Origin: a virus
Taxonomy: Duplodnaviria; Caudoviricetes
Virus record (IMG/VR): IMGVR_UViG_3300043435_000349
Coordinates: 1-52,144 of that record
Reading direction: 5' to 3' (one strand)
DNA: 52,144 nucleotides
Shown piece after piece: positions 4,942-41,663 of this stretch. The stretch's first letter is position 1, and the number at the start of each line of letters is the position of its first letter. The notes beneath the pieces are model-generated. The model saw only the letters and a list, made by a program, of their open reading frames with translations. It did not search any database and had not been told where the DNA came from. A program made the translations under genes and the position numbers.

Positions 4942-6682
4942 TGCGGTAGAGAATGCCCTGTCTGTAGAGCGTAAAGCTCTACAAGCGGCAGGTGAAGTTC
5001 CTGAGTGGTACACAACAGGTGGTTGGCAGTTATTCAAAAACAAATACAGCTATCATGGTGAGTCGGTAAAGAGTCGGTTCAAAACTATTGCCGATAGCTT
5101 GGCTGCTGATGCACCGAATGTGTATCCTTCTTGGTGGAATGTTGACCAGTTCACTGTGGGAAAGACATGGGGTGATGTATTCTTTGAGGTGTTATGGAAT
5201 GGCTGGGTTGTCCCACCAACACCATTGTATAGTAATGGCGGATTACCTGAGCGTGGACATACGGTAAGTTGCTCTCAGACATACATGGGTAACAACCTGT
5301 TTGATCGCTACAACCTAATGACCGAGCTTGCTGTCCTCACAAAACATGCCGCTGGATGTAGTGTTGATTTGTCCGAATGGCCTTGTGAGGGTCAGGCTCT
5401 GCCGCGTGGTGGTCGATCAGAAGGTATCATGCCAATTGTTCGTGACATTCTCACAACAATGAATGAGGTGGCACAGACCAACCGTCGTGGCAGCACAGCG
5501 TATAGTGTGAATGCAAGACATGGCGATTACTACAAGGTTCTTGAGGAGCTTTATCACAATCCTGAAAGCAACAATGTTGGAATCATCCACGATGATCAAG
5601 AGATCAAAGACATCTGGATTAACAAAGAGCCTAGTGCGGTAAAGCGTTTCGCTAAACTTGCAGAGGTTAAAAAAGCTCGTGGTAAAGGCTATATAACCAA
5701 GATTGACCACATCAATCGAAAACTTGCTGAACCATTCAAAAGGCTGGGTATGACAGCAAAGGCATCCAACCTCTGCCAAGAGGTTATGTTGCCAGTGGAC
5801 GCTGACCACACCTACTCATGTGTTCTTTTGAACTACAACTTACACAAGATGGATGAGTGGCCTGAGCATTTAGTATTCATTGGTCAGGTGATGTCTGATT
5901 GCAACATTACACAGTACCTTCGAGCATTGGATAATGTCAGTGAAAATGACAAGAAGGTGTTGCAGAAGATCAAACGATTCACTGAGAAGTTTCGTGCGCT
6001 AGGTAGTGGTGTTATGGGGCTTGCGAGTTGGTTTCAGAAGAAGTCAATTGTGTGGGGTAGTTTGGATAGCTTCTATGAGAATGGTCGCATCTTCAAGCAT
6101 CTAAACAAGCAATCCCTTGAAGCATCCAAATGGCTTGCTGAGGTGTTGGGCGAGCCAGAGGGATGCAAAGGTTTTGGTATCCGCAATGCAACCCGCCTGT
6201 CACTACCACCTACGAAATCCACTGCTGAGCTTTGTTACGGTGTGAGTGAGGGGATCAACCCTGATGCTGCGCTTGTGTTCACCAAGATGTCCTCCGGTGG
6301 TGAGGTGTTCAGGATTGTACCTGAATTGCTCAAATTGATGAAAGAGCGGAATGTCTATAATGACGATGTTCTGCAATCAATCAATGAACACAAGGGTAGT
6401 GTGCAGCATGTTGACTGGCTAGATGAACATGAGAAGAAAGTTTTTAGAACGGCTTTTGAGATTGATCAACACGCAATTGTGAGGTTGGCAAGTCAGCGAC
6501 AGAAAGAGGTTGATCAAGGGCAGTCCTTAAACTTCTATTTTGCTGGTAATGCAACACCAGAATACCAGTTGTCTGTTTACCGCGAAGCAATGCTTGATGA
6601 TGAGATTTTAACAGTCTATTACAGCTACAGCACTCGTGGTGGCGACTTCAAACAACCTGAACCATGTGAGGTCTGCACCTAA
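4934..6682 (+). CDS. nrdA: Ribonucleotide reductase class I alpha subunit (no ATP cone)
   Basis: PTP-x2-SN, VSC, SNLCQE thiyl-radical motif, PTKS, DQGQSLN, YY pair and C-terminal CEVC. Confidence 0.95.
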   Translation: MVNAVENALSVERKALQAAGEVPEWYTTGGWQLFKNKYSYHGESVKSRFKTIADSLAADAPNVYPSWWNVDQFTVGKTWGDVFFEVLWNGWVVPPTPLYSNGGLPERGHTVSCSQTYMGNNLFDRYNLMTELAVLTKHAAGCSVDLSEWPCEGQALPRGGRSEGIMPIVRDILTTMNEVAQTNRRGSTAYSVNARHGDYYKVLEELYHNPESNNVGIIHDDQEIKDIWINKEPSAVKRFAKLAEVKKARGKGYITKIDHINRKLAEPFKRLGMTAKASNLCQEVMLPVDADHTYSCVLLNYNLHKMDEWPEHLVFIGQVMSDCNITQYLRALDNVSENDKKVLQKIKRFTEKFRALGSGVMGLASWFQKKSIVWGSLDSFYENGRIFKHLNKQSLEASKWLAEVLGEPEGCKGFGIRNATRLSLPPTKSTAELCYGVSEGINPDAALVFTKMSSGGEVFRIVPELLKLMKERNVYNDDVLQSINEHKGSVQHVDWLDEHEKKVFRTAFEIDQHAIVRLASQRQKEVDQGQSLNFYFAGNATPEYQLSVYREAMLDDEILTVYYSYSTRGGDFKQPEPCEVCT

Positions 6683-6713
6683 TCTGGTGTGGCGCAACCA
6701 AAGGAGCAACACA

Positions 6714-6938
6714 ATGGAAAACCAACACCGCAAGATCACAGGCTACCGTGAGCTTTCCCAAGAGGAAATCAACACAATGAATGCAATCAAAAGCCAAGGA
6801 CAAGCTCTTGATGCTCTTGTGACAATGATTTCTGGAATTGAGAATGTTGACGGACGATGGCTTGACATCGGAACAACACAGCTACAACAAGGCTTAATGG
6901 CTCTGACAAGGGCTGTTGCACAACCTACGACATTCTAA
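6714..6938 (+). CDS. acb2: Anti-CBASS protein Acb2-like cyclic-oligonucleotide sponge
   Basis: MENQHRKITGYRELSQEEI..MN.IK...RWL.IG.T.LQ.G.MA..RAVAQP..F matches the Acb2 pattern, with Y11 and K26 conserved. AAGGAG RBS. Confidence 0.88.
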   Translation: MENQHRKITGYRELSQEEINTMNAIKSQGQALDALVTMISGIENVDGRWLDIGTTQLQQGLMALTRAVAQPTTF

Positions 6939-10937: not shown

Positions 10938-11636
10938 TCAACAACTAGGATGCCAGCTTCTCAACATCGGAGCTACCCAATCCACCTCCCACAACATAGC
11001 CTTGACAACCTTGCTAAGACCAACCACACCACGAAGGCTTTTCCTTTCAGCAACTACTAATAGAAAGCCTGTTGAAATGGCTGTCAACAAAATGGCATAG
11101 ACAATCGGTGTCAGAGCTTGACGAAGGGCAATTGAGCAGCCTGATTCAATGGCTACTGTAATGGCAACTGTCTGATGCTCAACCTCCTCTCGACTGTGGT
11201 ATAGCCAAAGATCCTTAGCTTGCCCCAAGAGCCTATCCTGTAGCTCTCGATCATGCAGCAACACATCAGCTAATGATGCTGTGAGGTGCTCTAGGATCAC
11301 TGTGATCTGTAGGTTGACTGATCGTGGCAAATGCTTGCTAGCAAGACGCAGGGGCTTCGCTATGGCCTTCTCAATCAGCTTTGGCATATTACCATCAATA
11401 CCAGAAAGTTGGCGATGTAACCTACTGTGGTTCATCTCCTGCTTGGAAAACTCATTGATCATTTCTTTGAGGTAGGGTAGGTCTTTCCTGTAGGCTTGGA
11501 CAGATCTGCAAAAGAAACTTTCGCCTTCATCGAATAATGCTCCTAAATTCTGGTAAAAGCAGGTCTCTAGGGCTGTTGTTGCGTAGTCACGGGGGATCTT
11601 GTCAAACTTGATGTTTGGTGGTGTTAGGGTCTTCAT
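10938..11636 (-). CDS. Predicted metal-dependent hydrolase (ferritin-like fold, PF10118-like)
   Basis: GESFFCRSV, QEMNHSRLH, LEHLTA and WLYHSREEVEH..VA motifs (paired ExxH). Confidence 0.75.
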   Translation of the reverse strand: MKTLTPPNIKFDKIPRDYATTALETCFYQNLGALFDEGESFFCRSVQAYRKDLPYLKEMINEFSKQEMNHSRLHRQLSGIDGNMPKLIEKAIAKPLRLASKHLPRSVNLQITVILEHLTASLADVLLHDRELQDRLLGQAKDLWLYHSREEVEHQTVAITVAIESGCSIALRQALTPIVYAILLTAISTGFLLVVAERKSLRGVVGLSKVVKAMLWEVDWVAPMLRSWHPSC

Positions 11637-11748
11637 TGAGCATTTCCTGTATTTGCATTCTGATTATTGTAATACAAAAAGCCCATAACACAAGAGCATT
11701 ATGAGCCAATTTTATAGCATGATGTGACAACGCAGGATTTATCCTGCC

Positions 11749-12425
11749 CTATTGAGGGGAAAGGATTGAACCATCAAGCAGCCCATCAAGGATTGCTTCT
11801 ACATGAGATTCTAGCATTACCAACTGTTGCAAGCAAGCCACATCTTCTGTCAAATGACTGTAGGCCAATATCTGTTGGAAGATGTAATTGCATTGGTCAA
11901 TTGCAATGTCATACAAGCATCCCTGAATGATCCGATCAAGGGAAGCGATGCTTTCCCCGACGCGGTTGATGATTGCCGTACTTTCCATTAGTCATGTTCC
12001 TCTGTGCGGATCTTCTCTTGTTGGATTACTGTTAGGTCATCAAGAACAAAGATAAACCATGCAGGGACATATGCCCGTAGGCTAAATGGTTGGCGAAGCG
12101 TACCATCTTCCATGTACTCCCACATCTGAATGCAATTTTGTGTCAGGCAACCTTCTGCAATTGAAGCAACCCCATCAACATCATATTCAACCTGAAATTC
12201 ATAGACGAATTGTTCATCGTCATAATTTACAGCCACTGTTACGTCTGTTCCATTGCCATCAATGTAGTATTGTGGGGCAATCATTGCGCTGATTGGGCTT
12301 TTGCCCTGAGCTTTACACCGCTGATGAGCTTTCTCACACAAGCTCAATTGCTCATATGCAACGTATTCACGATCACCAAAGACATTCTGGAATGTGAAAT
12401 AATAGCAGCGTTTCTGTGTGTTCAT
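11749..12425 (-). other. Two hypothetical CDSs (11988-12425, 11749-11988)
   Basis: Coupled ORFs downstream of a minus-strand TTGACA (12492-12497) and an AGGAG RBS. Confidence 0.6.
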
Positions 12426-12520
12426 GGTGAAGCTCCTGTGTGGACAGATGTCCGTTTCGATAGAGCTATCTTAGGGTGGATGGGGGTAGGGTGTCAACAC
12501 CTTTGATGGGTTTTTAGAAA

Positions 12521-12546
12521 TAAAAAAAAACAGCCCGAAGGCTGTT
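12521..12546 (-). terminator. Rho-independent terminator
   Basis: Minus strand reads AACAGCC-TTCG-GGCTGTT followed by a T-tract. Confidence 0.85.
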
Positions 12547-12976
12547 AGTTGGTGTAGAGTGGAGTGGAAATGTCGTCAATAGCGTCTCGGATGGATCGGA
12601 AAGGCTTTCCTCCCAGACCTCTGGCTCTTGCCTCAGCTTCCATTGTGTCGAGGGTCTTGAGGTATTGCAGCACCACACTTGGAATCTCTTTGCCATCTTT
12701 CAGCAAGCTCCACACTCGATGGTCTGGTAGCACAGGTCGTGTGAACATGTAGTCTGGTCGGATGTAATTCATCCTAGCAAAGCGTTTGGATTGGATGAAT
12801 AGGAACACCAACTTTTCAGTGTCTAATCCAGACAGCTTTTGCTTATAGAAAACATCCGCCACATCTTTACGTTCAACACCAAGAAGTTCTGCAACAACAG
12901 ACAGGGATATGTCAAAGTTGTTCCTGATGCACCCAATCATCTTGGCTTGTGTTGCTATGCTCATTGGTTTGTTCAT
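12545..12976 (-). CDS. Putative XRE-like HTH DNA-binding protein
   Basis: IRNNFDISLSVVAELLGVERKDV resembles a helix-turn-helix. Confidence 0.5.
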   Translation of the reverse strand: MNKPMSIATQAKMIGCIRNNFDISLSVVAELLGVERKDVADVFYKQKLSGLDTEKLVFLFIQSKRFARMNYIRPDYMFTRPVLPDHRVWSLLKDGKEIPSVVLQYLKTLDTMEAEARARGLGGKPFRSIRDAIDDISTPLYTN

Positions 12977-14595
12977 AGCTTCCTCTCCAAGATTCTAACA
13001 AACCCACGCTCACCTACTTCCCCCACCTTAATGTCACAAGCAGAAGCAATGTAGTATTTCCCACAATTAGACAAGACAGGCTCATCTTTATGTAGCTTAA
13101 CATTTCCACAAACATCCAATGTAGCCCACCCAAAACAGAGAGGGGCATTGTCAAAGATATGTCGATTGAATGTGTTCATTTCATATCTCCGGCGGATGTG
13201 TTTCCTTGAAGCTCTTTGATGTATTCATACAGGCAATCGATCTCATCCCAGTGTTTTTCATTACAGTGCTTGGCTGCCTCAGCGTAGTCATCAAACTCCT
13301 GTTCGTAACGACCAAACAATTCACGCACAACCCAAGTGCTTCGCTCAATCCGCTCAATGGTGTATTTCATTCTGTAGTCCCATCCATTCTGTTAATCCAC
13401 TCAAGAAGTGTGGATTTCACGTTTGCATTTCGTTCTGTAAAATCCCTACGAGCCTGCTCAACCATTGCTTCTGAAATCTCGCTGTTTGGAATCCTGACAA
13501 TAGTTGCAACCTCAATGTAACCACACATTGGTAGCCTATCTGTCCAGAATACAGAAGCATCAACAGCATCTTTGATTGCTTCGTCCATTGTGGATCGTTC
13601 GTCTTGCATGATCCCCGTGTCCCATGCCTTGTATTTCATTTCTCAGCCCTCAATTCTTCCAACTCTTGCTCCAGCTTTTCAACCTTACATTCAAGCTCAA
13701 AACATTTGTCCTCAAATTCTCCAGCCTTATCTTCCCAGTAATCCTTATCGGATTCCATTTCATCGAGGTCTTCCCGCAACATCTGTTGAGCGGTTGCTTC
13801 CTGTTCTAAAGCATCTTCCAATTCCTCAAATTTCTGAGCGATGCTGTCAAGCAATAGCCCAAACTCATATTGGCAATCTGGGTGGGCTGATATTGCATCC
13901 AAGAGCTTGATAGGCTCTGATGTCAGCATAGCCCAAGAAGCGATGGTTGATAGTGTGAACATGGCTTTCTCCAAAACGATTTGATAGGCGGATACTAACT
14001 AATGCCGCAGTGTATTGTCAACACCATTTCACCACACTTCTCTAAAATAGTTAGACTCGTACCACTCACTAAAAATACCACCAAGCCTGTAGAAGTTTCT
14101 TCCTTGTAGGTGGCGACGCTCAACCACCTCATATTTCTTACCAACAATTAGTTTGTCATACCAACCATCACCACCACCCCCATAAACCACTTTGGTGGTG
14201 ATGTTGCTTAAAGATAACACTTCTGCAAATGCAGTATTCTCAAAAGAAATGCGGTAGGGTTTTCCTTTATGGAATACAGATGCAAAGAGGATGCCTTCAA
14301 ATGGGTAGAGATCTGCGCCAACAACAATTTCTCCGTACAATGGATGTCCTTCCTTAACAACCATGATTGTGTCACCACGACCAAAGCCATTGGTGAGGGT
14401 CGGCTCTAAATCTTCGGGGTCATACCAGTTGAGTGACCTTTCTGTTCTTACGCCAACAGCAAGACTATCAACCCCGTCAATAATTGATAGGGCTGAAATG
14501 TGTCCATCTTGTTGTGTCGCGCTCACTGTCACACAAAGGCCAACAACAATCAAATCACGATTCATTTCTCTCTCCATTAACAAGAACAGCCCCAA
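12973..14595 (-). other. Five small hypothetical CDSs (12973-13179, 13176-13370, 13367-13639, 13636-13974, 14029-14595)
   Basis: The first four are coupled by 4-nt overlaps; 13636-13974 has an acidic coiled-coil tail. Confidence 0.6.
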
Positions 14596-14641
14596 TTGTA
14601 AGGGCTGTTGTGTGGGGTTGTCAAGTATTAAGAACAGAAAA

Positions 14642-15292
14642 TCACGGGGTGATTTCCCAATTCATCAAAGACTCATAAACGGCTGGCCTCAAGACATCTT
14701 TGTATTGATTGGCTACAGCTTTGATGTATGCTTCCTTTGCTGTCTTGTATGCCATTGATGTTTGTTCCACACTTGGGTATTGACCAACAGTGGTAAGTTT
14801 TCCACCAACTCTGATATGCCCCTGAAATGAGTTGTCTCTCCTGTTGTAGCTTACCCCATTGGGCAGCCCATTGTGGAGGTCATCGCAGCCTACAATCAAT
14901 GAGTTGATTGCTTGCGGTACTAATGCACATGTTTCTGCGGAATATAGTTTTCTGCCACGCCCAAGAATGTCTTTGTCAAGTTCAAGACCATAAGGCTTGC
15001 CGGAATACTCAACCTCTCCGTTTATCCACTGCAAAAAGCTGGCAAATGAAAGCCAATCATCCGAACATGTAACATCCAAATATCTCGGATACTTTGCCTT
15101 GAACCCATTGTTAAAGCACCTGTGAAGCATCGACAGCCACAACACATATTGCCAACAGTTTTTTCCCTCATCGACCCATATTTTGAAGTTGACATCGTTA
15201 TAACCATGACCCTGAACTGTCGGTGGAACAACCCTACGCTCAACACTCACCAACTGATCAATCTCAGCCTGACTAAGTTTTAACTTCTTCAT
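14642..15292 (-). CDS. HNH-like homing endonuclease with AP2-like C-terminal domain
   Basis: W..ML.RC...Y...W..F..F..W...LDKD...YS.ETC..VP..IN motif, then GVSY...F...I...G.Y. Confidence 0.75.
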   Translation of the reverse strand: MKKLKLSQAEIDQLVSVERRVVPPTVQGHGYNDVNFKIWVDEGKNCWQYVLWLSMLHRCFNNGFKAKYPRYLDVTCSDDWLSFASFLQWINGEVEYSGKPYGLELDKDILGRGRKLYSAETCALVPQAINSLIVGCDDLHNGLPNGVSYNRRDNSFQGHIRVGGKLTTVGQYPSVEQTSMAYKTAKEAYIKAVANQYKDVLRPAVYESLMNWEITP

Positions 15293-16518
15293 AACCCCTC
15301 CAACCATTCTCTCAAGAGTTTTTCCATCCTACTACTAAAAATGCAAACGTGCATCACTTCCCCATTACGGATACACCCACGCCATAGCCACTGAATCATC
15401 TCTGACAATGCAAACACATCTGTCTTGACGGGACAATCCCAATCTTGTAGGTAGGATGCCACAGCAACATTAGTATGCCGATTATAACAATGCATCATAT
15501 GTGTAACATGTGCGTGGTCGTTTGTCGCCCTTGTTGATGCAGCAAGCCAGCAGGGAAGTCCATTAGGCTTGATTGTATAACCAACAGGCTTAATCTTCTC
15601 ACTCTTTGCGGCAGATGCACAAGACCTGTATTTAGGGAACGTGTACAACACATTTTCCGATGACACGCCCCAATTCCGGCATGCCCTCAATATGGCGTTC
15701 TTAACCACATTCAGATCACCTTTCATCGGATTCATGTACCACGAATAGGTGAGCTTGTTCCGAAGATTGAAATTCTTAGGTGGTGGGGTGACCACTAATA
15801 GCTCACGCATCTTGTCGCCACAAATCCTCTGTAGTGCCAAAGGCTCTGCAAATGGGATGCTTGTAAACCCTTTGAGCTTGAGGAAGCTGTCTAGGATGTT
15901 ACCCTCAAACAAATAGGTGAGGATGATTACACGCTTCGCACTCTCAAGCAGCTTTGATGGTAGTTGTACAGTGAGCATGGTGTCACTACGCTTGGTTGTG
16001 TACAAACACCCACTATTGCACATCTGACGCAATCGGTAGTATTTATGAGAAGGACAGGCCACCTCAACAGACTGATTCACCCATTCAACCATGCCATCAT
16101 TCTCACCGATCTTGATGAAGCCTTCTTTGATCAACCACTTTAAATCCTCAATTGAATAATCATTGAATGCTTCAATCAGACCAATTTCCTCATCCACCAC
16201 GACAATGTAATCGTGTTGTTGAATGGCTTCAAAATGCTCATCAGTCATCAGTTTGTATAGGCTGTGTGTGCATGACACATTAGCACCAGCTTTCAGAAGC
16301 TCAAGCATAGCACCACTCTTACCTTCACCACTATCTTCTGGTGAATGGAACTCAACATTTCTGACAGCCTGATGCAGTCTACCACCACTCTCAACCTCAC
16401 TCAATAATGGTGACACATAGATATACCTCTGGTGGTAGTTGGCATCAATCCACTTGATGATGCTGCTGCTCTTACCAGACCCCATGATGCTATCAACAAT
16501 CTCAACAACCTTTCCCAT
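15289..16518 (-). CDS. SF2 (DEAD-like) helicase-related protein, putative origin-binding/replication protein
   Basis: Walker A DSIMGSGKS, YVSPLLSE, TH, VVDEE, RATN and QWLWRGCIR. Confidence 0.75.
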   Translation of the reverse strand: MGKVVEIVDSIMGSGKSSSIIKWIDANYHQRYIYVSPLLSEVESGGRLHQAVRNVEFHSPEDSGEGKSGAMLELLKAGANVSCTHSLYKLMTDEHFEAIQQHDYIVVVDEEIGLIEAFNDYSIEDLKWLIKEGFIKIGENDGMVEWVNQSVEVACPSHKYYRLRQMCNSGCLYTTKRSDTMLTVQLPSKLLESAKRVIILTYLFEGNILDSFLKLKGFTSIPFAEPLALQRICGDKMRELLVVTPPPKNFNLRNKLTYSWYMNPMKGDLNVVKNAILRACRNWGVSSENVLYTFPKYRSCASAAKSEKIKPVGYTIKPNGLPCWLAASTRATNDHAHVTHMMHCYNRHTNVAVASYLQDWDCPVKTDVFALSEMIQWLWRGCIRNGEVMHVCIFSSRMEKLLREWLEGL

Positions 16519-16519
16519 A

Positions 16520-17760
16520 CCAACCTCTCAACCTGATTTGGGGCATATCATACACAACTACAGAGCATGGTATTGTTTCTTTATGTAACCGAAATCAACC
16601 ACAGCTAACTGGTGAAATTATTACTGGAAATGTTTAGATCATTTAGGACTCTATCTATAAGCAAAAAGGTAGAAAACTTTATACATTCAATAAGTTACAC
16701 AACAGAACGTAAAGCGTTTCTTTTACCTAATACACCAATATACCATATATGTCATGTTGACATGACGGACAATTACACACAAGAAGATAGTAACAATGTT
16801 GTGTTGACACAACAGAAGTAATGGCTGGGTTAAGGGGACGCAGTCGCCCTTGCTGGGCGGCCAGTGCCGATTCTGTTTAAACATTCAAAAAGAAAACTAA
16901 AATCTTTTCCTGCCCTACAGGACTACTACTATGTGTCACCACATGAGAGATAACATTGTTGTGTTCCACAACAGCATGGTCATGTTGTAGGGCATGTTGG
17001 TCATGTGTACAGGCAATGCCTGTGATTAAAAGCAAGAGCAAAAGATCTTTTTTATTATTAAACAAGCCTACTGTAATAACACAACAGGTATGTGTGGTCA
17101 TGTGCCATGACAGAGGTGTTATCACCTTAGTGTCCCACTAAGAGATGGTCTGTTGTGTTGTCCCAAACGCAAGGCATTTGGGTGTAGTGTTACTACCATG
17201 ATGTACCATCATGTGATAAAGAATTGTGTAAACACAATGTAAACGATGAAATCTTGTGTGAATCAAGACGTGTCATATACATGACACAAGAGAATGTCCT
17301 TATGTGTTTGTTTCTTCTATGATGTTCCATCATGAGTTAGGTGGTTGTTTTTGTGTGTCACAAAATTGTGTTGGTGATGTTGTTGCTCGGCAACAGAGGT
17401 GGTGTCATTCTGACAGGATGTTGTCACTGTTGTGTTCCACAACGCTGGTAGTGATTGCAGCTTCGCTGCCTTCTTGTTGCCACCTAGAAGCAAGCTTCTG
17501 TGTTTCTGTTATTGTTGTAAGCTGTTGTTCTGTGGGGAATGAGGGTAGTGGGGATGGAAATCTTGTGGGGGTGTGGGGTCTGTGGGAATGCTGTTCTTCT
17601 GTGGTAGTGCGGTTCTTTTTGGTGTGGATCTTATTTTGTTATTGTTAGTTCTGTTATTGCCATTTAGTTCTTGACAAATCCCATAAAGATTTACAATGGA
17701 GCATGTACAGGTGTTGACTGTTGTTGTTTGTTCTGGTAGAGTGGTGGTTTAAATCTGGAG
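16520..17760. other. Long intergenic region, putative replication origin 1
   Basis: No credible ORF; lies at a strand-divergence point. Has a 26-bp element shared with 36790-36815, an IHF-like site and repeated hairpins. Confidence 0.45.
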
Positions 17761-17767
17761 AGTTGTT

Positions 17768-18421
17768 ATGGGTAAGTTGAAGTTGTCACAACAGGAAATT
17801 GACCAGTTGGTGCTGGTGGAGCGAGTGGAGAGGAAATCTACAGTGTGTGGCGTTGGAGTTGTTGATGTGGTATTTCAACCCTCAATTAGAGGGAAAGTTA
17901 TCTGGCAATACGAGCTATGGAAGGGTGTTTTGAGGAGATGTTGCTCGGAAAAACTTAAAGCAAATCGACCTCACTATCGGGAGGCATCTATTTGTACGGA
18001 TTGGCTGTCTTTTGCAACGTTTTTCGAATGGGTCAATCTGGAGGTTGGGTACAAAGGAAAGCCTGTTGGGATGGAATTGGATAAAGACATTCTCGTTAAG
18101 GGAAATAAGGTTTATTCACCGACTACCTGCTGTTTTGTCCCATCACGGATCAATAAGCTATTGACCGACAGAAGATCACATCGTGGTCAATATCCTATTG
18201 GTGTAACGTTCAATAAAACAGGTGGTCGCCTAGCGGCATCCTTAAATTGTAATGGTGTGGATGTATTTCTAGGTTTGCATGATACACCAGAGGCTGCTTT
18301 CTTAGCCTACAAGACAGCAAAAGAGTCTTATGTTAAGGAAGTCGCAAATGAATACCGACATGCCCTCACATCAGAAGCATACACCGCACTGATGTCTTGG
18401 GAGGTGGATATTTCTGCTTAG
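17768..18421 (+). CDS. HNH-like homing endonuclease with AP2-like domain (paralogue of 14642-15292)
   Basis: Same motifs (LDKDIL..GNKVYSPTTCCFVP..IN) and a near-identical N-terminus KLKLSQ.EIDQLV.VER. Confidence 0.75.
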   Translation: MGKLKLSQQEIDQLVLVERVERKSTVCGVGVVDVVFQPSIRGKVIWQYELWKGVLRRCCSEKLKANRPHYREASICTDWLSFATFFEWVNLEVGYKGKPVGMELDKDILVKGNKVYSPTTCCFVPSRINKLLTDRRSHRGQYPIGVTFNKTGGRLAASLNCNGVDVFLGLHDTPEAAFLAYKTAKESYVKEVANEYRHALTSEAYTALMSWEVDISA

Positions 18422-19073
18422 CCAAACAAAAGGCAAAGATAAAACAGGGCGGGGGTGGTTGTTGAACATGGCATCTTTTACTTGTCATCAATATTAACCA
18501 TCCACCGCCCCATTTACAAGTTGTTGCTCTGGTAGTGGTGATCTGTGTACCAATGCGCTTTGTCAAACCCGCCCACCTATATCTATGGTTGGGAAGTTAC
18601 AGTTTTCTGATGTAAACTCCCATCAAACAGAAACGCACTGTCTCGCGATGGTTTATTGTAGGAAGGCTGTAGTGTATTCTCAGAATAAGCCAGACATTGG
18701 TTGTGATTATTTATGTCAATAAAATAAAAACATCCTGTGGTCTTTGAGAATTTCTGTAAAAATTTTATACCCCGAGCAAAAAAAGTTTTCAGCCCTATAT
18801 AGGAATTCCCTAGTCTTTACAATCTAAATCCTTTTTGAGAATTGCTCTCATTTCGTTTTAAATCATATCTACCGTTTATCTGGTTTTTCTGCCGTTCATC
18901 ACCTGCCTATTGCTTTTGATGCTGGTTGTGGTATAATCGACCACTTTTGAGATACCACAGCTAACAACTTTTAGCAATGGCTTTCCTGACAAATTACAAA
19001 ACTTTATTTTTATTTTGTAACTCCTATTGACAAGCCATGCCGATCTGTGGTAGCAGACAAAATCATAAAGTAA

Positions 19074-19212
19074 AGCAACAATCATGCCAACTATAAACAT
19101 GGCATGTTCCTTGCATATCATGCAACTTCTATGCCAATCTCAATATTGGCACGTCTATTGCATGGCCTAGAATTCTGGCATGAACATTGCATATATGCAA
19201 TCAGTGTGCCAA
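19074..19212. promoter_or_regulatory. Array of six sigma-54 (RpoN) -24/-12 boxes
   Basis: Six TGGCA-N6-TTGCW 17-mers at 19074(-), 19099(+), 19121(-), 19146(+), 19175(+) and 19196(-). Confidence 0.75.
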
Positions 19213-19514
19213 TGTCTAAGAATCTGGTTTGTCAACTATTTGCCGACGAAATGAGTATGATCCGATGAACGGCATAAAACAAGCTATTTTCGCCACTTGT
19301 CGGAAAATAAAGATATTGGTATTGACTTTCTAAGTTGGCATGTATTGTGCATATGTTCTATCGAGCTTGCTCGAATATCATAGTGATTGTTGTTTGTCAA
19401 TCTTTTTCTGATGAGTGGTAAATAACAGGCTCGTCCGGTGATTGTCTCCACCGAGTGCCAGTGCTGTCGCTAATATAGCTCGTCCGAGGGACGCTGTCAA
19501 CATGTTTAAGAAAT

Positions 19515-19538
19515 AAAAACCGCCAATAATGGCGGCTA
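19515..19538 (-). terminator. Terminator after 19555-19869
   Basis: CCGCCA-ATAA-TGGCGG hairpin with a T-tract on the minus strand. Confidence 0.6.
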
Positions 19539-19554
19539 GTGTAGTCTGGTGATT

Positions 19555-19869
19555 CTAGGCTTTTTCATAATAAACAAAATTCTCTAAGTCGATACCAAAG
19601 CTGGTTACAATCACGCCGGACTCCAAGGCGCGTATATCGGTATAACCGGCAATTTTCCGACCGTCTTCTAGTGTAAAGATAAACCGGCTAGAAGGTTTTG
19701 TGTTGTCACTTGTGGCCTTTACAATCCGAACGACCTTCATTTTAACGCCTTTTTTGATTGAGCTGTTGCCAGTGAATTTTTTGGCACAGCTCCAGCCATA
19801 TGGCTTATTGCCGACAAATACAGGGGCAGACACTTCAGCTTTGCAGCAAGAACATAGGATGGTGGACAT
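19555..19869 (-). CDS. Hypothetical early protein with Cys motif (CxCC...GWSC)
   Basis: GGAG RBS, its own TTGCAT/TATAGT promoter and a terminator. Confidence 0.65.
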   Translation of the reverse strand: MSTILCSCCKAEVSAPVFVGNKPYGWSCAKKFTGNSSIKKGVKMKVVRIVKATSDNTKPSSRFIFTLEDGRKIAGYTDIRALESGVIVTSFGIDLENFVYYEKA

Positions 19870-20153
19870 TGCAGTCACTCCAAAAAAGATACACCGGATC
19901 TGGTGCGTTAAGGCCACTATATAAGACTAATGTGCATCATGCAACTATTTGCCGACGAACGGCAACCGAGGGACAAACAAAACCGGATAAATCAGGCCGG
20001 AACATAGTCCTATATGCTCCCCATTTGCCGTATACGCTTTTTAAATGCAATCGGGTAGGGTAGCCCCATGATCAGGCTAAACAGGCGTATAACGCAAAAT
20101 AGGAAGGACAATAAACAGGCTAGAAATGTTCTAAATCTTTTTGCTTAATAGTG

Positions 20154-20234: not shown

Positions 20235-20576
20235 ATGGCCACTATCGTGCGTATCGTTAAAACATCTTTGTGGACTGCTTATATTGTTGCTGGTAAAGTG
20301 ACATTGGCTAAAGATGCAAAAACTGGCCGCTTCATTAAGCGTAACCTTGTACAGATGTTCATCGACACATTAGCCGCTCAAGCTGTTTTGAGTGTACGTG
20401 GTTACAATAACAGCTTTAATGCCATTGCTAAAAAAGTGCTTAACGTGCCTAGCTTCTTTAGTGACAAACTTTGTGTACTGTTGTTCACCAGCAACACTCT
20501 AACAGATAGCGAGATGCGGTCGGTAGTGCGTGACTGTCAAAACGCTGGTTACTATACGGACATGATTGCCGCATAA
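20235..20576 (+). CDS. Hypothetical early protein, paralogue of 23381-23692
   Basis: Shared N-terminal GK..LAK.AK.G..IK....Q...D.LA..A motif. Confidence 0.7.
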   Translation: MATIVRIVKTSLWTAYIVAGKVTLAKDAKTGRFIKRNLVQMFIDTLAAQAVLSVRGYNNSFNAIAKKVLNVPSFFSDKLCVLLFTSNTLTDSEMRSVVRDCQNAGYYTDMIAA

Positions 20577-20592
20577 CGTTTCACGTGAAACA
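20577..20592. promoter_or_regulatory. parS-like ParB-binding palindrome
   Basis: CGTTTCACGTGAAACA matches TGTTTCACGTGAAACA at 15 of 16 positions. Confidence 0.7.
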
Positions 20593-21170
20593 TCATAGCC
20601 TGTCACGTCTAACAGGCTAGACACAAAGATACAAATATCTTATTGCCTTATCATGTGAATCATGGTAGGGCTTTTTCGTCTATTTGTCAGCCTTTCCATT
20701 AGACGTGTTTGGTGTTTGTCTCCCCAGTCATGCCGTGCTGTCCCCACTATAACTAATTTACCTATATTGTGTCAACAATAAGCCGACAAACGGCAACCGA
20801 GGGAATCAGCACCGAGACGGGTAGCCCCAGCTATAAGCCAGTAGCCCCAGAACGCTCTGGTTTGCGTTATACGCCGTTCTATTCGAGTCTGGTACAAACA
20901 TACAGGCATATAGGCTGGAAAGCCGTATACGACAATTTAGCTTTTTGAACAAATAATTGTTGACAATGTACTACCTGTATGCTACGCGCATACGCGCATA
21001 CAAATAAGACAAAACATAGCATCGAAAATAAATGCAAATAATTTAATAAAACGCTTGCATCATGTTTTTGTTTTGGATATAGTGGCTCTACCGGCTAGAG
21101 ACGATCTAGTGGGCAGTTAGACAAGGCAACAGACTAGCCTAAATAGTCGATTTTGAATACAGGTGCAATT

Positions 21171-22859
21171 ATGGCATTTTTAACAGTTAAACATTCAATC
21201 AGCAAGGCACAAGACACCTGCGGCTACAATCGTGTAACTCTGATTGATCAATCAACGGGCAAGCGTTATACATGTGTCGGTGGTGGATACGATATGCTAG
21301 GCACGTGCCTAGGTCAGTATTTGCAAGCTAATCACCAAGTGGAGTTGCTTGGTTTAGTTTGTCGTGCAAAGCAAGCGGTGACATTTGATGCTGAATCAAA
21401 CCGCTATCGGTTTACTGATAACCCTGTTAGTAGTGCGCTTTATGGCTTAACCTACAATGCAAAGCTTAACGCTATGCAATTGGACGGAGGCTGCGGTTTT
21501 GAATGTATGGTACGGATAGCGCGTGCAGCCGGTTTGACGGTGAATCTTCACCACGACAAGAAAGGCCGTTTGATCAATCTTTTTGTGGGGTGAATCATGC
21601 AGCTTGTCGGTTATGTATGCATCACAAGCAAAGGTCGATATAAGTATGATCGGCAATCAATGGAAAAAGCTTGTCGGCAATATGGCAAGTCTGGTTTATA
21701 TGAATCTGATTGTTTGTGGATTATTAAAGTCTGGAACAATCAGGGTAAGAGTGGCGGTTATTGTTACAAACCAGTCTATCGCTAGAATGAAACATAGGCA
21801 AGCTATCACGCCTCAAGTGATAGCATTTTTAAGGAGGGACATATAATGTCCAACATGGCACAACCGAAGGTAATTGAGCTAACGCTCGACGATGTAGGGT
21901 ACAATGGCGTAACCAAGCGTGACGTGGGCAAGCTGATGCTAGTATGGCCTAATGGTTGTACAGACATTATTAGCAAGTATGAGCCGATTAATCGTAATTG
22001 GCTAGGACATGTGATTTATGAGAATGGCGGGCGTTATTCACACCACCACAAAAATGATGATGGCGATTTAGTGTTTTACTGTGACATACTACCGGATAAT
22101 GTTGCTGCATTATTCCCGCAAGCCATTGTTATAAGCCGTGGCGATTATGTCAGATCTAAGCTGGTATTTCCCAAAAATACTAGGCTCAAGACACTACGCA
22201 CAACATACAAGGGGGTAAGATTGTATGCCTAAGCTATGGTTATATCGCTACCCTTGCGGCAAGATTGGCTACTTTATTGGGATTCACAAGGTGGCCACAA
22301 AAGTTACTGGTAAGCTCGACAAGCGCAACAAATATGTCATGTTGAATTGTCACCGTTATCAAATAGGCGGTTGGATCAATGGGTAACCTCCTAGCCTTTT
22401 TGTTTTGGTTGTCCCTTTTTTCTTTAATGTTTTGGAGTGTTTAAGATGGATTATCTAACGAATCAGGAGCTTGCTGCATTTAATGCAAGCCAGAAAGTAG
22501 TACAAGCCGGATCTGTTGCCTTTAATGGCTATGTATTCACAGGGTACGATGCACGAGCCTACAATGCTTATTTGTATGACTTAAGCAAAGAACGCCACAA
22601 GCCGACAAGGGATTTTCTGCTTGATCAACGTCACCGTCTTTTTTGCTTAATCATTGGCATGGTAGGAGTGTAAAACATGGCTACACAATTTAGCGTAAGA
22701 CGCAATGTATACTACGCAGGCATGTTAGAATCATCGGACATTGTAGCGTCTGGTTTTGAATCGTACACAATGGCTGACTATGCATGCTACACTATTGCAA
22801 ACAACAGCCAATGTCTGTTAGAGTTTAAAGGTTGCCATATTGTTTTTAGTGTGGTGTGA
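21171..22859 (+). other. Early operon of small hypothetical CDSs (21171-21593, 21597-21785, 21846-22232, 22437-22673, 22677-22859)
   Basis: RBS-preceded ORFs downstream of TTGACA and TTGCAT promoters at about 20960-21085. Confidence 0.6.
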
Positions 22860-23040
22860 AGGCTGCACCCACCCCCACGATTCACAAGGCAAGCGTATAG
22901 CCTTTTTAATATGCGCATTTTTGGTGTGCTGGTGTTTATAGGTTTGAACGCACAAGCATGGGTAAGGTCTACCGTGTGCAAGTGGGATTCTTTGAGTTGA
23001 GACAGCACCCAATACAGGACATTTACTAACACAATCAATT

Positions 23041-23064
23041 AAGCCCCTTTACTGGGGCTTTTTT
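23041..23064 (+). terminator. Rho-independent terminator
   Basis: AAGCCCC-TTTACT-GGGGCTT followed by TTTT. Confidence 0.8.
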
Positions 23065-23071
23065 ACGTCTA

Positions 23072-23088
23072 TGCAAAAGCAATGCCAA
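23072..23088 (-). promoter_or_regulatory. Sigma-54 -24/-12 box
   Basis: Minus strand reads TTGGCATTGCTTTTGCA. Confidence 0.6.
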
Positions 23089-34945: not shown

Positions 34946-36424
34946 TCAAAAGAAGCCTTCCCAACTGATGACAGGCATTTCATTGTCCACACACTCAGAA
35001 ACGTATTCTGAGGGCAATTGCTTGTCAAAAACACAAGGGGCTTCAATAGTCCCGTCATCTTGTTCCCATCCATCCCAACATGTTGTCGGCATGTTCTTGT
35101 CAGCAGAAGGCTCTTTCACAGGGACATCCGCAACAGGGCTGTCAACAAACACAATGCCAAGATTTTCTGATGCCATTCTGTATGACAATGGGTTGCTAAC
35201 AACAAATTCGTCATTAAGCCAACGTTCAAACAGCTTGCGCATTCTTGGGGCTAAGATAGCCACAGTCATTGGTTCACCCTTACGGATACACCCACGCCAC
35301 AACCACTGCACTAGCTGAGATAGCGCATAATGATCACGATCAACCGACACCCCCATGTCCGTCAAATAAGCATCCACAGCACTGTTGGGGTGGACATCTA
35401 AAGCATAGACCATCACTTTCTTGTGGGCATACTCATTGGTAGCCCGACACTTCGGATAAATCCATGTTTCCCGACCCTCCTTATGCACCTTTCCGTTTGG
35501 CTTAATCAACCTGTTTTTCAATTCACCACGCCTAATTACAAATTCTTTTGGTAGTGAGAACCCACAATCCGCAGCATCATATGGTCGAAATATGTTTGAC
35601 AAAGTTCGCTCAACAGCCTGTATATCAGGCGACTTCATGTTTTTCCAAGATGTCTGTGTCAAGGACAACTTGTCATATGGTTTGTAGTAGGATTTTGACA
35701 CAGGCTCAATCAGGTGAGCCACACTACTAGGCAACACATCAGGAACGTCAACACCTGTAAACTCTATCCACTCAACACCATGTAAAGACAAGAACTGCTC
35801 AAGCAAACTACCCTTAAACATGTAGCTCATAATGATGACACGTCTAGCACACATCAAAACATCAACAGGCAGACAAGACACCACAAAGCCATTATATCGC
35901 TTGGAACTATACAACAAACCTTTCCCACACATCTCCTTGACCTCCGTGTACATGACCTTCTGTACAGTGGAAGCATCATGAAATGTCAACCTGCCATTTG
36001 TGTCATCACGCGACAAGTGACCATTGTCAAACAACCAAAGCATATCTCTAGGTGGGACATCTCGGAAGGCTTCAATCAAACTCACTTCTTCATCCAACAC
36101 GATGGTATAGCCGAGTTGCTGAATCAACTTCCAATGACGTTCATCACAAGTTTTCAACAGAGCATGTGTTGTAGCAATGTTTTCCCTTCCAGACAACAAT
36201 AACAACATGTCCTCTGCCTTAGAGGATCGCCATTTATCACCATCTTTAAACACCAACCGCTCTGGACACTTAACAGCAAGGTCTGGCCTTACAGCATTGA
36301 TCCTTTCTTCTGCTTCACTGAGCAATGGGGTGACAAAGATAAATCGCATCTCTGGTTTTAGCCACTGTAAAATGGCATTAGTCTTACCAGCACCCATCAT
36401 CCTGTCTAACACTTCAACTTTCAC
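34946..36424 (-). CDS. SF2 helicase-related protein (paralogue of 15289-16518) with acidic tail
   Basis: DRMMGAGKT, FVTPLLSE, TTHAL, VLDEE, RATN and QWLWRGCIR. Confidence 0.75.
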   Translation of the reverse strand: MKVEVLDRMMGAGKTNAILQWLKPEMRFIFVTPLLSEAEERINAVRPDLAVKCPERLVFKDGDKWRSSKAEDMLLLLSGRENIATTHALLKTCDERHWKLIQQLGYTIVLDEEVSLIEAFRDVPPRDMLWLFDNGHLSRDDTNGRLTFHDASTVQKVMYTEVKEMCGKGLLYSSKRYNGFVVSCLPVDVLMCARRVIIMSYMFKGSLLEQFLSLHGVEWIEFTGVDVPDVLPSSVAHLIEPVSKSYYKPYDKLSLTQTSWKNMKSPDIQAVERTLSNIFRPYDAADCGFSLPKEFVIRRGELKNRLIKPNGKVHKEGRETWIYPKCRATNEYAHKKVMVYALDVHPNSAVDAYLTDMGVSVDRDHYALSQLVQWLWRGCIRKGEPMTVAILAPRMRKLFERWLNDEFVVSNPLSYRMASENLGIVFVDSPVADVPVKEPSADKNMPTTCWDGWEQDDGTIEAPCVFDKQLPSEYVSECVDNEMPVISWEGFF

Positions 36425-36429
36425 ACAAC

Positions 36430-36970
36430 AGCCCTCGACCTAAATGGACAACAAATGTACTATTGAAGCTCTGTTTTGTCAAGCTCAGTTTTGTATGAAA
36501 AATGAGGTGTTGTCAAAAACCAACACTTTGTCCTGTAAGTTATTGATCCGGTACAAGATTTCTGGCTAAGCCTATAAGAGTCAAACCAATATAATATGAT
36601 AGATAAGATGAATATGATCACCCACTACAGTCTGCTCTATGCCTGCTTCGCAAACGTACATAATCTGCTACAGTCAACTGATTTAGACAAATATTTAGTC
36701 CAACTGAAATAACGCTTTTGTCTTTTGCTCTTAATCTTTTTACATGACCACTGTTGGATAAATCCAACCATGCACACCATAAGGTTAAAAGCAAAAGATC
36801 TTTTTTATTATTAAAAAAACACCCTCTACAGCTTACGTCAACAGAACCAGCTTATAAATCCGATTTCTGTTGACATTGGCTTTTGTTGTGTTTGTTTTTG
36901 CAACTTGTTGCCATGTGACCCAATTGATCTCACGGAACACAGAGCCGCTATTAGCAATTATTTATTTCAT
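36430..36970. other. Intergenic region, putative replication origin 2
   Basis: AT-rich, with IHF-like TAAGTTATTGAT (36535-36546) and a 26-bp element identical to 17037-17062. Confidence 0.45.
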
Positions 36971-39324: not shown

Positions 39325-39400
39325 TGCGGGGTAGCTCAGTTAGTAGAGCCTCGGACTCATAATCCGACTGTCGCTGGTGCGAATCCAGCCCCCGCATCCA
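39325..39400 (+). tRNA. tRNA-CAT (probably Met; Ile2 not excluded)
   Basis: Acceptor TGCGGGG/CCCCGCA, anticodon arm TCGGA-CTCATAA-TCCGA, T arm GCTGG-TGCGAAT-CCAGC, encoded CCA. Confidence 0.9.
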
Positions 39401-39457
39401 TATGCGCCAACAACCTCTGCTTCGGTAAGTTGTTGCTCTATTCCAAAAGGACAAAGC

Positions 39458-39808
39458 ATGGGATCTGCCCTACTTTGCCTTTCTCTTGCTATCTACCATG
39501 AAGCTCGTGGTGAATCTACCAAAGGTATGTTCGCTGTAGCAGAAGTGGTAATCAATCGAACAGAAGAAATGGAAAAATCCATTTGTGATGTTGTATATCA
39601 ACCCCATCAGTTTAGCTGGACTAGACGGCACGGACGCAATGTCCCACCTGACAGCGAAGCATGGCGTAAGAGCAAAGAAATTGCCAGCCAATCCCTCAAA
39701 ACCAAGACCAATTACACAAGCGGCAGCTTGTTCTTCAACACAAGATCAATTGGTGTTCGTTTTGGGAGAAGCAAGAAAGCAGAGATAGGCAACCACATAT
39801 TCTTTTAA
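39458..39808 (+). CDS. SleB-like cell wall hydrolase (Hydrolase_2)
   Basis: CL..AIYHEARGE, AVAEVVINR, ICDVVYQPHQFSW and IGNHIF motifs. Confidence 0.9.
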   Translation: MGSALLCLSLAIYHEARGESTKGMFAVAEVVINRTEEMEKSICDVVYQPHQFSWTRRHGRNVPPDSEAWRKSKEIASQSLKTKTNYTSGSLFFNTRSIGVRFGRSKKAEIGNHIFF

Positions 39809-40202: not shown

Positions 40203-41663
40203 GTGACAATTTCATTTGCACCTGCTTCTCGTAAACAACAAATGATGCTAACGTCCAATGCTGACGTTACAATTGTGGGTGGAGCAGCAGGAAGCGGCAA
40301 ATCGTACATCAGCATTCTTCGCCACCTTCGCTTCATTGATGACCCCTACTATCGTGGCAACATCATCCGTAAGGATGCAACCATTTTGTCAAGGCAAGGT
40401 GGTATGTTCGATGAATGCTTGATTGTGTTTAAAGCGTTTGAACCTCGTGTTAAATACACGAAGCAACCAATGGTGTTTACATTCCCATCCGGTGCAACGG
40501 TGAGCTTGACACACTACAACGATGATAAAGCATCTGAGCAATATCGTGGTTTGCAGCTACAAGGCATCTGTTATGACGAATTGACAGAAGCCAAAGAAAA
40601 CCACATCTTCACCCTTATTTCTCGTATGCGAGCTGTGAGGTCGAAGTACAAAGAGTGGTTTCTTGGGACATGTAACCCACACGTTGACAGTTGGCTCAAA
40701 GATTGGGTGTTGTGGTATCTCTATCCAGAGGGTCATGAACTTGCTGGTAGGCCAGACCCAAACAAAGATGGCATCATTCGCTACATCAACAATCTTGGTG
40801 GCAAGACAGTATTCACTAACACAAAAGATGAGATGAAGGCTCTTGTGAAAGATTTCACAGGTAGAGAGCCACAGGATCACGAAATCCTATCATTCACTTT
40901 TGTTAGCGCAAACATTTACGACAACCCACCCCTTCTCAAGAATGCCCCACAGTATTTGTCAAAGCTACTAGCTCAGCCCCGTGTTGAGCAGGAACGATTG
41001 CTACACGGCAATTGGTTTGCACGACAAGAAGCAAGTGGTCGGTTTAAGCGAGAGTGGCTAGGTGAACCCTTACCAGAAGCCAAACGTACAGACATTAAAT
41101 CCCGTGTTCGTTGTTGGGACTTGGCTGGCAGCCTTCCCGATGAAGTGAACCCCAATCCCGACTGGACAGTTGGTGTGTTGATGTCGAAAGACAAGCATGG
41201 TGTATTTTACATCGAAGATGTTGTTCGGTTCAGAGAACGTGTTGGGCAAGTGATTGAGCGCATTGCTCAGGTAGCCCTTGCAGACCAAGAAGAATTTGGC
41301 AATGTTCAAGTGTACCTTCCTCAAGAACCAGCACAAGCAGGTATATCTGCCCTCAAGTACAATGTCAGCGTTTTGGCATCCTACGGTATTGGTGCTAGAG
41401 GGATCAAGGTTGGTTCAAAGAGCAAGACAACTCGTTTTGAACCTTTCTGTGCATCAGCAGAGGTCGGCAACATTCGCATTGTAAAAGGTGAGTGGAATGA
41501 CGTGTTCTTTGAGGAACTAGAGTCATTCGACGGCAGCAGGAACAGAAAAGACGATATTGTCGATTCGACAGCCGATTCATTCTCTAGATTAGCAGAACGC
41601 AAAGAGCTTCCCAAGTTTAGTCTTGACAACTCACATTTTAGCAATCCCCTTCTATCAAGGTAA
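40203..41663 (+). CDS. terL: Terminase large subunit
   Basis: GGAAGSGKS, YDEL, TCNP, WDLA and DDIVD nuclease acids. Confidence 0.95.
   Translation: MTISFAPASRKQQMMLTSNADVTIVGGAAGSGKSYISILRHLRFIDDPYYRGNIIRKDATILSRQGGMFDECLIVFKAFEPRVKYTKQPMVFTFPSGATVSLTHYNDDKASEQYRGLQLQGICYDELTEAKENHIFTLISRMRAVRSKYKEWFLGTCNPHVDSWLKDWVLWYLYPEGHELAGRPDPNKDGIIRYINNLGGKTVFTNTKDEMKALVKDFTGREPQDHEILSFTFVSANIYDNPPLLKNAPQYLSKLLAQPRVEQERLLHGNWFARQEASGRFKREWLGEPLPEAKRTDIKSRVRCWDLAGSLPDEVNPNPDWTVGVLMSKDKHGVFYIEDVVRFRERVGQVIERIAQVALADQEEFGNVQVYLPQEPAQAGISALKYNVSVLASYGIGARGIKVGSKSKTTRFEPFCASAEVGNIRIVKGEWNDVFFEELESFDGSRNRKDDIVDSTADSFSRLAERKELPKFSLDNSHFSNPLLSR

Follow-up and report, generated by a model that had tools for sequence, protein, structure and literature searches.

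Why would a bacteriophage keep a dense cluster of sites resembling sigma-54 (RpoN) promoter elements in DNA that holds no recognisable gene for them to transcribe? The question is raised by a 1.1-kb noncoding gap in the IMG/VR viral record IMGVR_UViG_3300043435_000349 (Duplodnaviria; Caudoviricetes), analysed here over its entire length of 52,144 bp, which we call the window. The completeness of the genome is estimated at ~56%, and the metagenome runs holding the window sequence are from lake water. A preliminary description made from the letters alone had reported the cluster, stated that it had no gene to drive and proposed that it could be a decoy for sigma-54, a help in ratcheting DNA into the cell or a shield for a genome end. 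Our results show that the array is a real, recurrent, sharply defined and virus-specific element, and its sites match sigma-54 sites at positions that no filter had selected. What the array does is a matter of graded probabilities, which are weighed below after the evidence has been given.

The six-site array and its likeness to sigma-54 sites

With a strict pattern of 16 letters, TGGCA-N6-TTGCW, searched on both strands, six exact sites were found within 138 bp (19074-19211; Table 1). The whole window contains nine exact matches; over 100 dinucleotide-preserving shuffles the mean was 0.70 (sd 0.80, max 3), and none reached nine. The cluster of the preliminary description is thereby confirmed. 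A position weight matrix (PWM) trained on 332 unique sites from other viral contigs only gave nine matches of at least 9 bits in the window, whereas 30 mononucleotide shuffles gave 0.77 on average and four at most. Its matches of at least 15 bits are exactly the eight sites noticed at the outset, that is, the six of the array, a seventh near 19335 on the plus strand with one mismatch and an eighth at 23072 on the minus strand. This last, solitary site stands directly 3' of a plus-strand terminator hairpin (~23040-23066) and is oriented back into it, with no evident target gene. Two further exact matches, at 39671 (-) and 51505 (+), lie within coding sequence, score below 9 bits and 9.6 bits, respectively, and look like chance.

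The six sites vary at nearly all of their free positions while the 11 fixed ones are unchanged, a sign of selection on the motif, and their alignment bears out the earlier remark that the internal bases differ at a constant GG-GC spacing. With their flanks they read TTGGCA(C/T)(G/A)-N4-TTGCAT; the first position after TGGCA is T in four and C in two, and the next is G in four and A in two. Sites are spaced 20-29 bp apart in alternating orientation, with a -,+,-,+ run at 26/21/26 bp, and the two facing pairs, previously put at 4-5 bp apart, were measured at 5 bp and 4 bp.

The base preferences of the motif were read at positions outside the site filter, in 402 unique sites and their flanks from 95 other viral loci, position 6 being fixed as Y solely in the two seed sites per locus. 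In these sites the base after TGGCA is C (0.62) or T (0.37), the next is G (0.68) or A (0.30) and the third is a purine (0.76), while the base preceding TGG is T (0.62) with an A-rich run before it. For comparison, Table 3 of PMC3844500 lists 29 intergenic Salmonella sites with sigma-54 ChIP-chip support, in which we counted by hand 17 C, 11 T and one G after TGGCA, followed by 19 G and 10 A; 11 of the 29, also by hand count, fit the strict pattern. The proportions at both positions are the same in the viral and the Salmonella sites. Inside the arrays the motif is also strictly asymmetric, since among the TKGCA-N6-TKGC combinations there are 489 TGGCA...TTGC sites, against no GG..GG, no TT..TT and one TG..GG. 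This asymmetry fits YTGGCACGrNNNTTGCW, which we take to be the sigma-54 consensus. The match to the -24/-12 consensus proposed in the preliminary description therefore extends past the GG/GC core to unselected positions, and, as far as sequence can tell, the identity of these sites with sigma-54 sites is well supported.

Recurrence in viral contigs and rarity in bacteria

The 95 loci are those returned when 2.9 million viral contigs were scanned for facing pairs (TGGCAY-N5-TTGCA, 3-6 nt, TGCAA-N5-RTGCCA); the chance expectation, which we estimate from the 20 fixed bases, is far below one. Once TGGC was allowed at the -12 element as well, 3-12 clustered sites were counted in 70 of the 95, and at least six in 39. 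Measured from start to start, face-to-face sites are most often 19-21 bp apart, back-to-back sites 26 or 36 bp and tandem sites 26-28 bp. Spacings of 26 bp (n=79) and 21 bp (n=76) were counted in loci unrelated to the window, whose 26/21/26 run is the commonest geometry. According to flank homology the loci fall into 42 groups, with GC contents from 0.34 to 0.64, and 15 of them count as singletons by default because the flanks are only 300 bp long.

The facing pairs are not hairpins. Among 125 unique pairs, the number of complementary free spacer positions, out of four, was zero in 35, one in 62, two in 23 and three in five, and no pair had all four; the mean of about one in four is the chance level. 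A reading of the array as structured RNA was rejected on this ground and for want of an Rfam match.

The sites of these genomes are also confined to one place. In 11 array-bearing contigs, hand-picked from the 95 and searched as whole records, a single cluster per genome accounts for 101 of the 112 strict sites. The cluster holds every strict site in G005 (14/14), G006 (8/8), G007 (10/10, within 509 bp of 44.3 kb), G009 (10/10), G010 (7/7), G012 (8/8) and G015 (7/7), as well as 16/20 in G008 (within 4 kb of 354 kb), 6/7 in G011, 7/9 in G013 and 8/12 in G014. Enrichment at a locus relative to controls, a check set beforehand, was found in 11 other viral genomes.

The pair is rare outside viruses. 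Even with its gap widened slightly, to 2-6 nt, it matched at only 11 loci in 596 Gb of bacterial and archaeal genomes, and only two of these have at least four sites; their contigs had been binned into a Planctomycetales and a Saprospiraceae metagenome-assembled genome (MAG). Of the two MAGs, G016 has rpoN (E 2e-57) and G017, an incomplete 2.6-Mb MAG, shows none. Four other matches, all in Actinobacteria (L123, L124, L128 and L130, from a Pseudonocardia MAG, Streptosporangium and Streptomyces), are perfect or near-perfect palindromes of 35-38 bp with complementary spacers. These palindromes are an element distinct from that of the phages, and the actinobacterial genomes that carry them showed no clear sigma-54 domain.

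In other phages the array is placed between operons, often near the terminase genes. It lies between diverging leftward and rightward gene blocks in G005, G007, G013, G015, G010 and G011, and 0.2-2 kb upstream of the large-terminase operon in G005, G007, G015, G013, G012, G009 and G011; in those phages it may have a regulatory or replication role. Three complete contigs with terminal repeats carry the array in mid-contig (at 20.2 of 44.3 kb in G007, 17.5 of 41.3 kb in G015 and 8 of 37 kb in G013). Because arrays lie away from the assembled ends of such contigs, the shielding of a genome end is disfavoured, and the proposal that the array helps to ratchet DNA in found no support either, the array being internal in the window too. 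A link with contig ends was likewise rejected, as 8 or 9 of the 95 arrays lie within 300 bp of one, about the chance level for short contigs.

Two of these phages deserve a separate remark. The contig of G005 (L116/L117), recorded as complete and 'linear', wraps, since its start (103-545) repeats its end (36130-36563) at 94% identity, and the boundary of the repeat falls inside the array; arrays may break or wrap assemblies. In G006, a PurZ-like gene (L120:1485-2567; phrog_1211, E 1.2e-54) suggests that the family may replace adenine by 2-aminoadenine, in which case proteins would recognise its DNA, the array included, differently.

Searches for relatives of the individual loci returned little. 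The gap DNA of the window had no match among cultured phages, and a protein search with the two flanking ORFs (open reading frames) found no relatives in viral contigs; in metagenome contigs it found only a 38%-identical fragment on an unrelated contig of GC 0.57 without sites. Terminase relatives in viral contigs reach at most 39% identity. The G005 array gave only chance 19-mers by BLAST against cultured phages, five distant cultured relatives of G007 and G005 have one site in all, and the polymerase of the G005 family is closest to those of Pelagibacter and Roseobacter phages at no more than 48% identity, which is uninformative on the host.

The gap, its neighbours and the phage

The statement that the sites have no gene to drive holds in the window, where the gap lacks a supported ORF and site 8 points into a terminator, but not as a general rule, the arrays of other phages being placed between divergent operons. 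The gap has no credible ORF, no tRNA and no Rfam family, and the small ORFs overlapping the array (18876-19121, 19104-19268 and 19284-19451) have no Pfam or PHROGs match. A hairpin with a T-run closes the ORF on its right and shields the gap from leftward read-through (Table 1). Two of the six sites can be read with TTGGCA as a sigma-70 -35 box, but this was rejected as a general explanation, since neither the sites nor the loci conserve the hexamer downstream. No RNA runs are listed for this stretch, and the one RNA run examined covers 18540-18688 only.

At a larger scale, the gap is found between a leftward gene block (10938-17125) and a rightward one (20235-22859), which are separated by three inserted ORFs, one of them a homing endonuclease. 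The HNH gene that abuts the gap resembles a homing-endonuclease insertion at a block junction. To the left of the array there is also a second repeated motif, CTGTGGT with TTGAGA nearby, in direct and inverted copies (18735-18750, 18920-18966 and 19045-19055).

The phage codes for a portal, a prohead protease and a major capsid protein in addition to its large terminase, and for a ribonucleotide reductase, a ThyX-type thymidylate synthase, MazG, PhoH and a cytosine methylase. Its terminase (at most 45% identity) and capsid (at most 39%) are related to those of ~90-kb myoviruses, namely phages of Acinetobacter, Pseudomonas and Edwardsiella and the Felix-O1 group. The only tRNA gene of the window, a tRNA-Met, overlaps the predicted start of an endolysin-like ORF, whose real start probably lies more downstream. 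A 100-aa product matches the Acb2/Tad1 hairpin domain (Pfam PF24729, E 2.7e-15), whose characterised members are sponges for cyclic-nucleotide immune signals. Two large paralogs of phrog_2467 (E 4e-64 and 1e-51) have no assigned function and no Pfam match.

Table 1. Positions of the array sites and of other features in the window
Feature	Position	Strand	Sequence	Remarks
Site 1	19074-19089	-	TGGCATGATTGTTGCT	PWM 22.7 bits
Site 2	19100-19115	+	TGGCATGTTCCTTGCA	PWM 19.6 bits; faces site 3, 5 bp between (19116-19120)
Site 3	19121-19136	-	TGGCATAGAAGTTGCA	PWM 23.1 bits
Site 4	19147-19162	+	TGGCACGTCTATTGCA	PWM 22.5 bits; 15/16 letters as in the Salmonella gltI sigma-54 site
Site 5	19176-19191	+	TGGCATGAACATTGCA	PWM 19.3 bits; faces site 6, 4 bp between (19192-19195)
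Site 6	19196-19211	-	TGGCACACTGATTGCA	PWM 20.3 bits
Site 7, outlying	19336-19351	+		PWM 15.0 bits; one mismatch, GTGCA for TTGCA at the -12 element
Site 8, solitary	23072-23087	-	TGGCATTGCTTTTGCA	PWM 19.6 bits
Noncoding gap with array	18422-19554			1.1 kb; between HNH gene 17768-18421 (+) and ORF 19555-19917 (-), both directed into the gap
AT-rich stretch	18650-19100			left of the array; GC 0.29-0.36 in 100-bp windows
Intrinsic-terminator-like hairpin with T-run	19518-19537	-		ends ORF 19555-19917
Sigma-70-like promoter	19472-19500	-		TTGACA-17-TATATT, 11/12, leftward to the array; consensus match only
HNH endonuclease	14642-15307	-		phrog_953, E 1.5e-53; paralog of the next
HNH endonuclease	17768-18421	+		phrog_953, E 4.1e-63
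Large terminase	40203-41663			21 kb from the array
Acb2/Tad1 hairpin-domain ORF	6636-6938	+		100 aa
phrog_2467 paralog	15289-16518	-		E 4e-64
phrog_2467 paralog	34946-36424	-		E 1e-51
tRNA-Met	39325-39400	+		overlaps the predicted start of the endolysin-like ORF
Endolysin-like ORF	39377-39808			

Possible roles of the array and known systems

The reading that we favour, tentatively and at somewhat less than an even chance, is that these are genuine sigma-54 sites which work by occupancy, as a sponge or a barrier, and not as gene promoters. The phage would keep the array at one noncoding locus and, on entry and more so with replication, host sigma-54 or its holoenzyme would load on the sites and stay there as closed complexes without an activator. 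In PMC3844500 the closed complex of the sigma-54 holoenzyme is described as stable, with opening dependent on ATP hydrolysis by an enhancer-binding protein. A facing pair, its -12 elements 4-5 bp apart, would be one binding slot that can be filled in either orientation. The predicted starts of a pair are 17 bp apart and each melting region overlaps the recognition elements of the partner, and because of this overlap a pair would hold one holoenzyme yet could not fire both ways.

The net effect would likely be titration of a scarce sigma factor, damping the sigma-54 regulons that infection induces (envelope-stress, RNA-repair, pilus/flagellum or nitrogen genes), and a second possible effect would be a stable protein-DNA barrier at a transcription-unit junction. 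Sigma-54 is a low-abundance protein, about a hundred molecules per Escherichia coli cell, that controls envelope stress, RNA repair, pili, flagella, type VI secretion and nitrogen uptake. Its specificity is conserved, and it differs from other sigma factors in its stable binding to DNA without firing. The window array has six consensus-grade sites, and arrays of other phages up to 14. With sigma-54 scarce and six sites per 138 bp multiplied by the number of genome copies, against 11 strict ones among the 29 supported intergenic sites of the whole Salmonella chromosome, a replicating phage would soon present more high-affinity sites than the host chromosome. We infer binding, closed-complex trapping and titration from the sequence, and the decoy of the preliminary description survives as the leading reading, unproven. 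The broader claim, that phages of many lineages carry a dedicated DNA sponge of 6-14 facing-pair sites at one noncoding locus, where dead-end closed complexes would silence activator-dependent host responses, is more doubtful.

Several points weigh against occupancy. The 95 loci came from the motif search itself, and recurrence alone is therefore partly ascertainment, leaving the unselected positions and the clustering as the only tests. Four uncultured 88-kb terminase relatives carry one strict site in all, so that the trait is not conserved in the wider lineage, and five cultured relatives by terminase or capsid carry five strict sites in all, none of them in an array. Four of those five are in Pseudomonas phage UAVern (MZ605293.1), at 229-555 and 11414-11609, together with two weaker ones. 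All of the UAVern sites, which run against the genes beside them, lie within two unannotated gaps (1-1035 and 11135-11901), and the phage, although it has no array, is a possible lead for a tractable laboratory model. Runs X2 and X3 show no differences in the array region over the covered parts; in run X4, however, a relative ~88% identical aligns in the flanks, and in place of the 185-bp core (19034-19218) it has 173 letters that do not align at 80%. The divergent-operon or terminase-side position of the arrays coincides with the usual place of origins, packaging sites and main regulatory regions, and the AT-rich stretch adjoins the window array as at iteron origins. Occupancy would also fail in a host without rpoN; of the cultured relatives, those nearest in terminase and capsid infect Gammaproteobacteria, and their identity does not exceed 45%. 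Finally, holoenzyme trapped on DNA would withdraw core polymerase that the phage itself needs.

We consider it unlikely that the sites are working sigma-54 promoters in both directions, fired by a host activator or by an unrecognised phage activator that acts from solution. Promoters of this kind would produce short RNAs, convergent or antisense, would prime or activate replication, or, on a host signal such as nitrogen limitation or envelope stress, would raise the output of the flanking operons. Real promoters are matched equally well under this explanation, and the junction of diverging gene blocks, where the array of other phages is found, would suit it. Activators lacking a DNA-binding domain can act on any closed complex, according to PMC3844500, and a preprint (10.64898/2026.10.06.757011) describes a phage protein with an activator-like fold and no GAFTGA loop, for which the sigma-54 link is speculative. 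In the window, however, no family-supported ORF lies downstream of any site, and the flanking genes are directed into the gap, so no gene or RNA stands downstream in the right orientation. The facing starts, given their overlapping melted regions, would be mutually exclusive, and the dense array leaves no space for an enhancer 80-150 bp upstream. The activator ATPase domain PF00158 was not found in the window (~56% of the genome) or in G005. In a family of 35 loci, a TTGACT-17-TATACT promoter separates the array from the first gene, and the three sites closest to this gene are directed away from it; with a canonical promoter beside them, the arrays are not the sole promoters of the flanking operons.

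Sites for a phage protein are a somewhat unlikely explanation as well. Under it the arrays would be origin iterons, a packaging or partition site or the operators of a master regulator, resembling sigma-54 sites by coincidence or through mimicry. Origins and cos/pac sites usually have repeats of 16-20 bp in both orientations, and the single locus per genome, the number of sites, which varies among close relatives from 6 to 12 (2 to 12 over the 35-locus family), and the position upstream of terminase genes in at least seven other genomes all agree with it. So do the six repeated sites of the window that adjoin an AT-rich stretch, though their orientation alternates and their spacing varies. Against this stands the same 16-mer, with the degenerate preferences of sigma-54, in phages whose GC content spans 0.34-0.64, and the search for a shared binding protein. 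At BLASTP E<1e-3, 10 array-bearing genomes or genome parts were compared, and no family is common to more than four of them. The only window proteins with a counterpart are the terminase, portal, protease and one small ORF, each in a single other array-bearing genome, and none of its ORFs is shared with the flanks of the 95 loci. The most frequent neighbour of the arrays is an AT-hook protein of ~135 aa, followed by an M15 endolysin, and a profile of the former matches its own 35 loci and G005 only; proteins directly upstream of the large terminase are unlike across groups. The window array, moreover, is 21 kb from the large terminase gene, away from the terminase-adjacent position of a cos or pac site. 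There are no DnaA-box matches in the gap (three in the whole window, where nine are expected) and no recognisable initiator gene beside the array, whose neighbours are the HNH endonuclease and ORFs without a family match. The sigma-54 DNA-binding domain PF04552 was not found in the window or in the complete array-bearing genomes G005, G007, G013 and G015, and no sigma, activator or HTH family was detected among the 74 window ORFs scanned in Pfam. With no shared family and no sigma-54 or activator domain found, a binder common to these phages would most simply be a host protein, and of such proteins sigma-54 alone has a known specificity that fits every informative position.

A selfish or neutral repeat without a function for the phage, either a tandemly expanding 47-bp unit or a mobile noncoding element, is very improbable. 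The number of units does vary, the plus and minus sites of the 35-locus family fall into two sequence sub-types, a division that duplication of a 47-bp unit would be expected to give, and insertions are tolerated in the gap, as the HNH homing endonuclease in its flank shows. Nevertheless, the six window sites diverge at free positions and keep the 11 fixed ones, there is a single locus per genome, and the same motif occurs in unrelated phages.

If the arrays bind sigma-54, they would be a widespread phage route to host transcription through DNA and not through protein, and long 'empty' intergenic regions of environmental phage genomes would be explained. If the sponge is real, it would have no predecessor among natural DNA decoys for sigma factors, and phage counter-measures would gain a new class. 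Even with a phage protein as the binder, the array is a recurrent landmark, at one locus per genome and often on the terminase side, that aids the annotation of origins and regulatory hubs in uncultured phages. A full-text search of the literature, in which subscription journals are outside the coverage, brought up no account of phages with arrays of sigma-54 sites or with decoys for sigma factors. Among the nearest items is the resistance of Salmonella rpoN mutants to Felix O1, which is indirect, via glutamine limitation and RpoS (PMC8744999).

The sigma-54 promoters of the PMC3844500 set have the same TGGCA(C/T)(G/A)-N4-TTGC(A/T) core as the phage sites, with the GG-to-GC spacing fixed at 10 bp. 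They are, however, single, located upstream of a gene and activator-dependent, with an enhancer usually 80-150 bp upstream, whereas the phage arrays have 6-14 sites, 20-29 bp apart and in both orientations, and none has a target gene in the window. Orphan and intragenic sigma-54 sites of the Salmonella, E. coli and Vibrio chromosomes likewise lack an obvious transcription unit, and in PMC3844500 interference, antisense RNA and help in promoter search are among their proposed roles. Those sites are scattered, single and inside genes, unlike the dense arrays of the phages in noncoding DNA.

Iteron origins and terminase repeats, such as lambda ori and cosB or P1 oriR and pac, are similar in having one locus, 16-20 bp repeats in both orientations and an AT-rich flank; the terminase-side position is shared by the arrays of other phages and not by that of the window. 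Sites of this kind are specific to the initiator or small terminase of each phage, whereas the arrays follow the consensus of a host factor across unrelated phages. Titration by DNA has its own precedents, and the E. coli datA locus titrates DnaA. Synthetic or chromosomal decoys for transcription factors are the subject of PMC3322331, PMC7826281 and PMC8599769. Decoy arrays of this sort have many high-affinity sites, no regulated gene and an effect that scales with copy number. The window array likewise has dense, high-scoring predicted sites without a regulated gene in the window, and it may titrate its factor. The literature search turned up no natural decoy for a sigma factor, nor any that is phage-borne.

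Phages also have proteins that act on the host RNA polymerase holoenzyme, such as T4 AsiA, which redirects or disables it. T7 Gp2 is another protein that acts on the holoenzyme during infection (PMC3778932), and Htm, the activator-like protein of a T4-like phage, has a sigma-54 link that is proposed but not shown in a preprint (10.64898/2026.10.06.757011). The array differs from all of them in being a DNA element, which would act as a sink.

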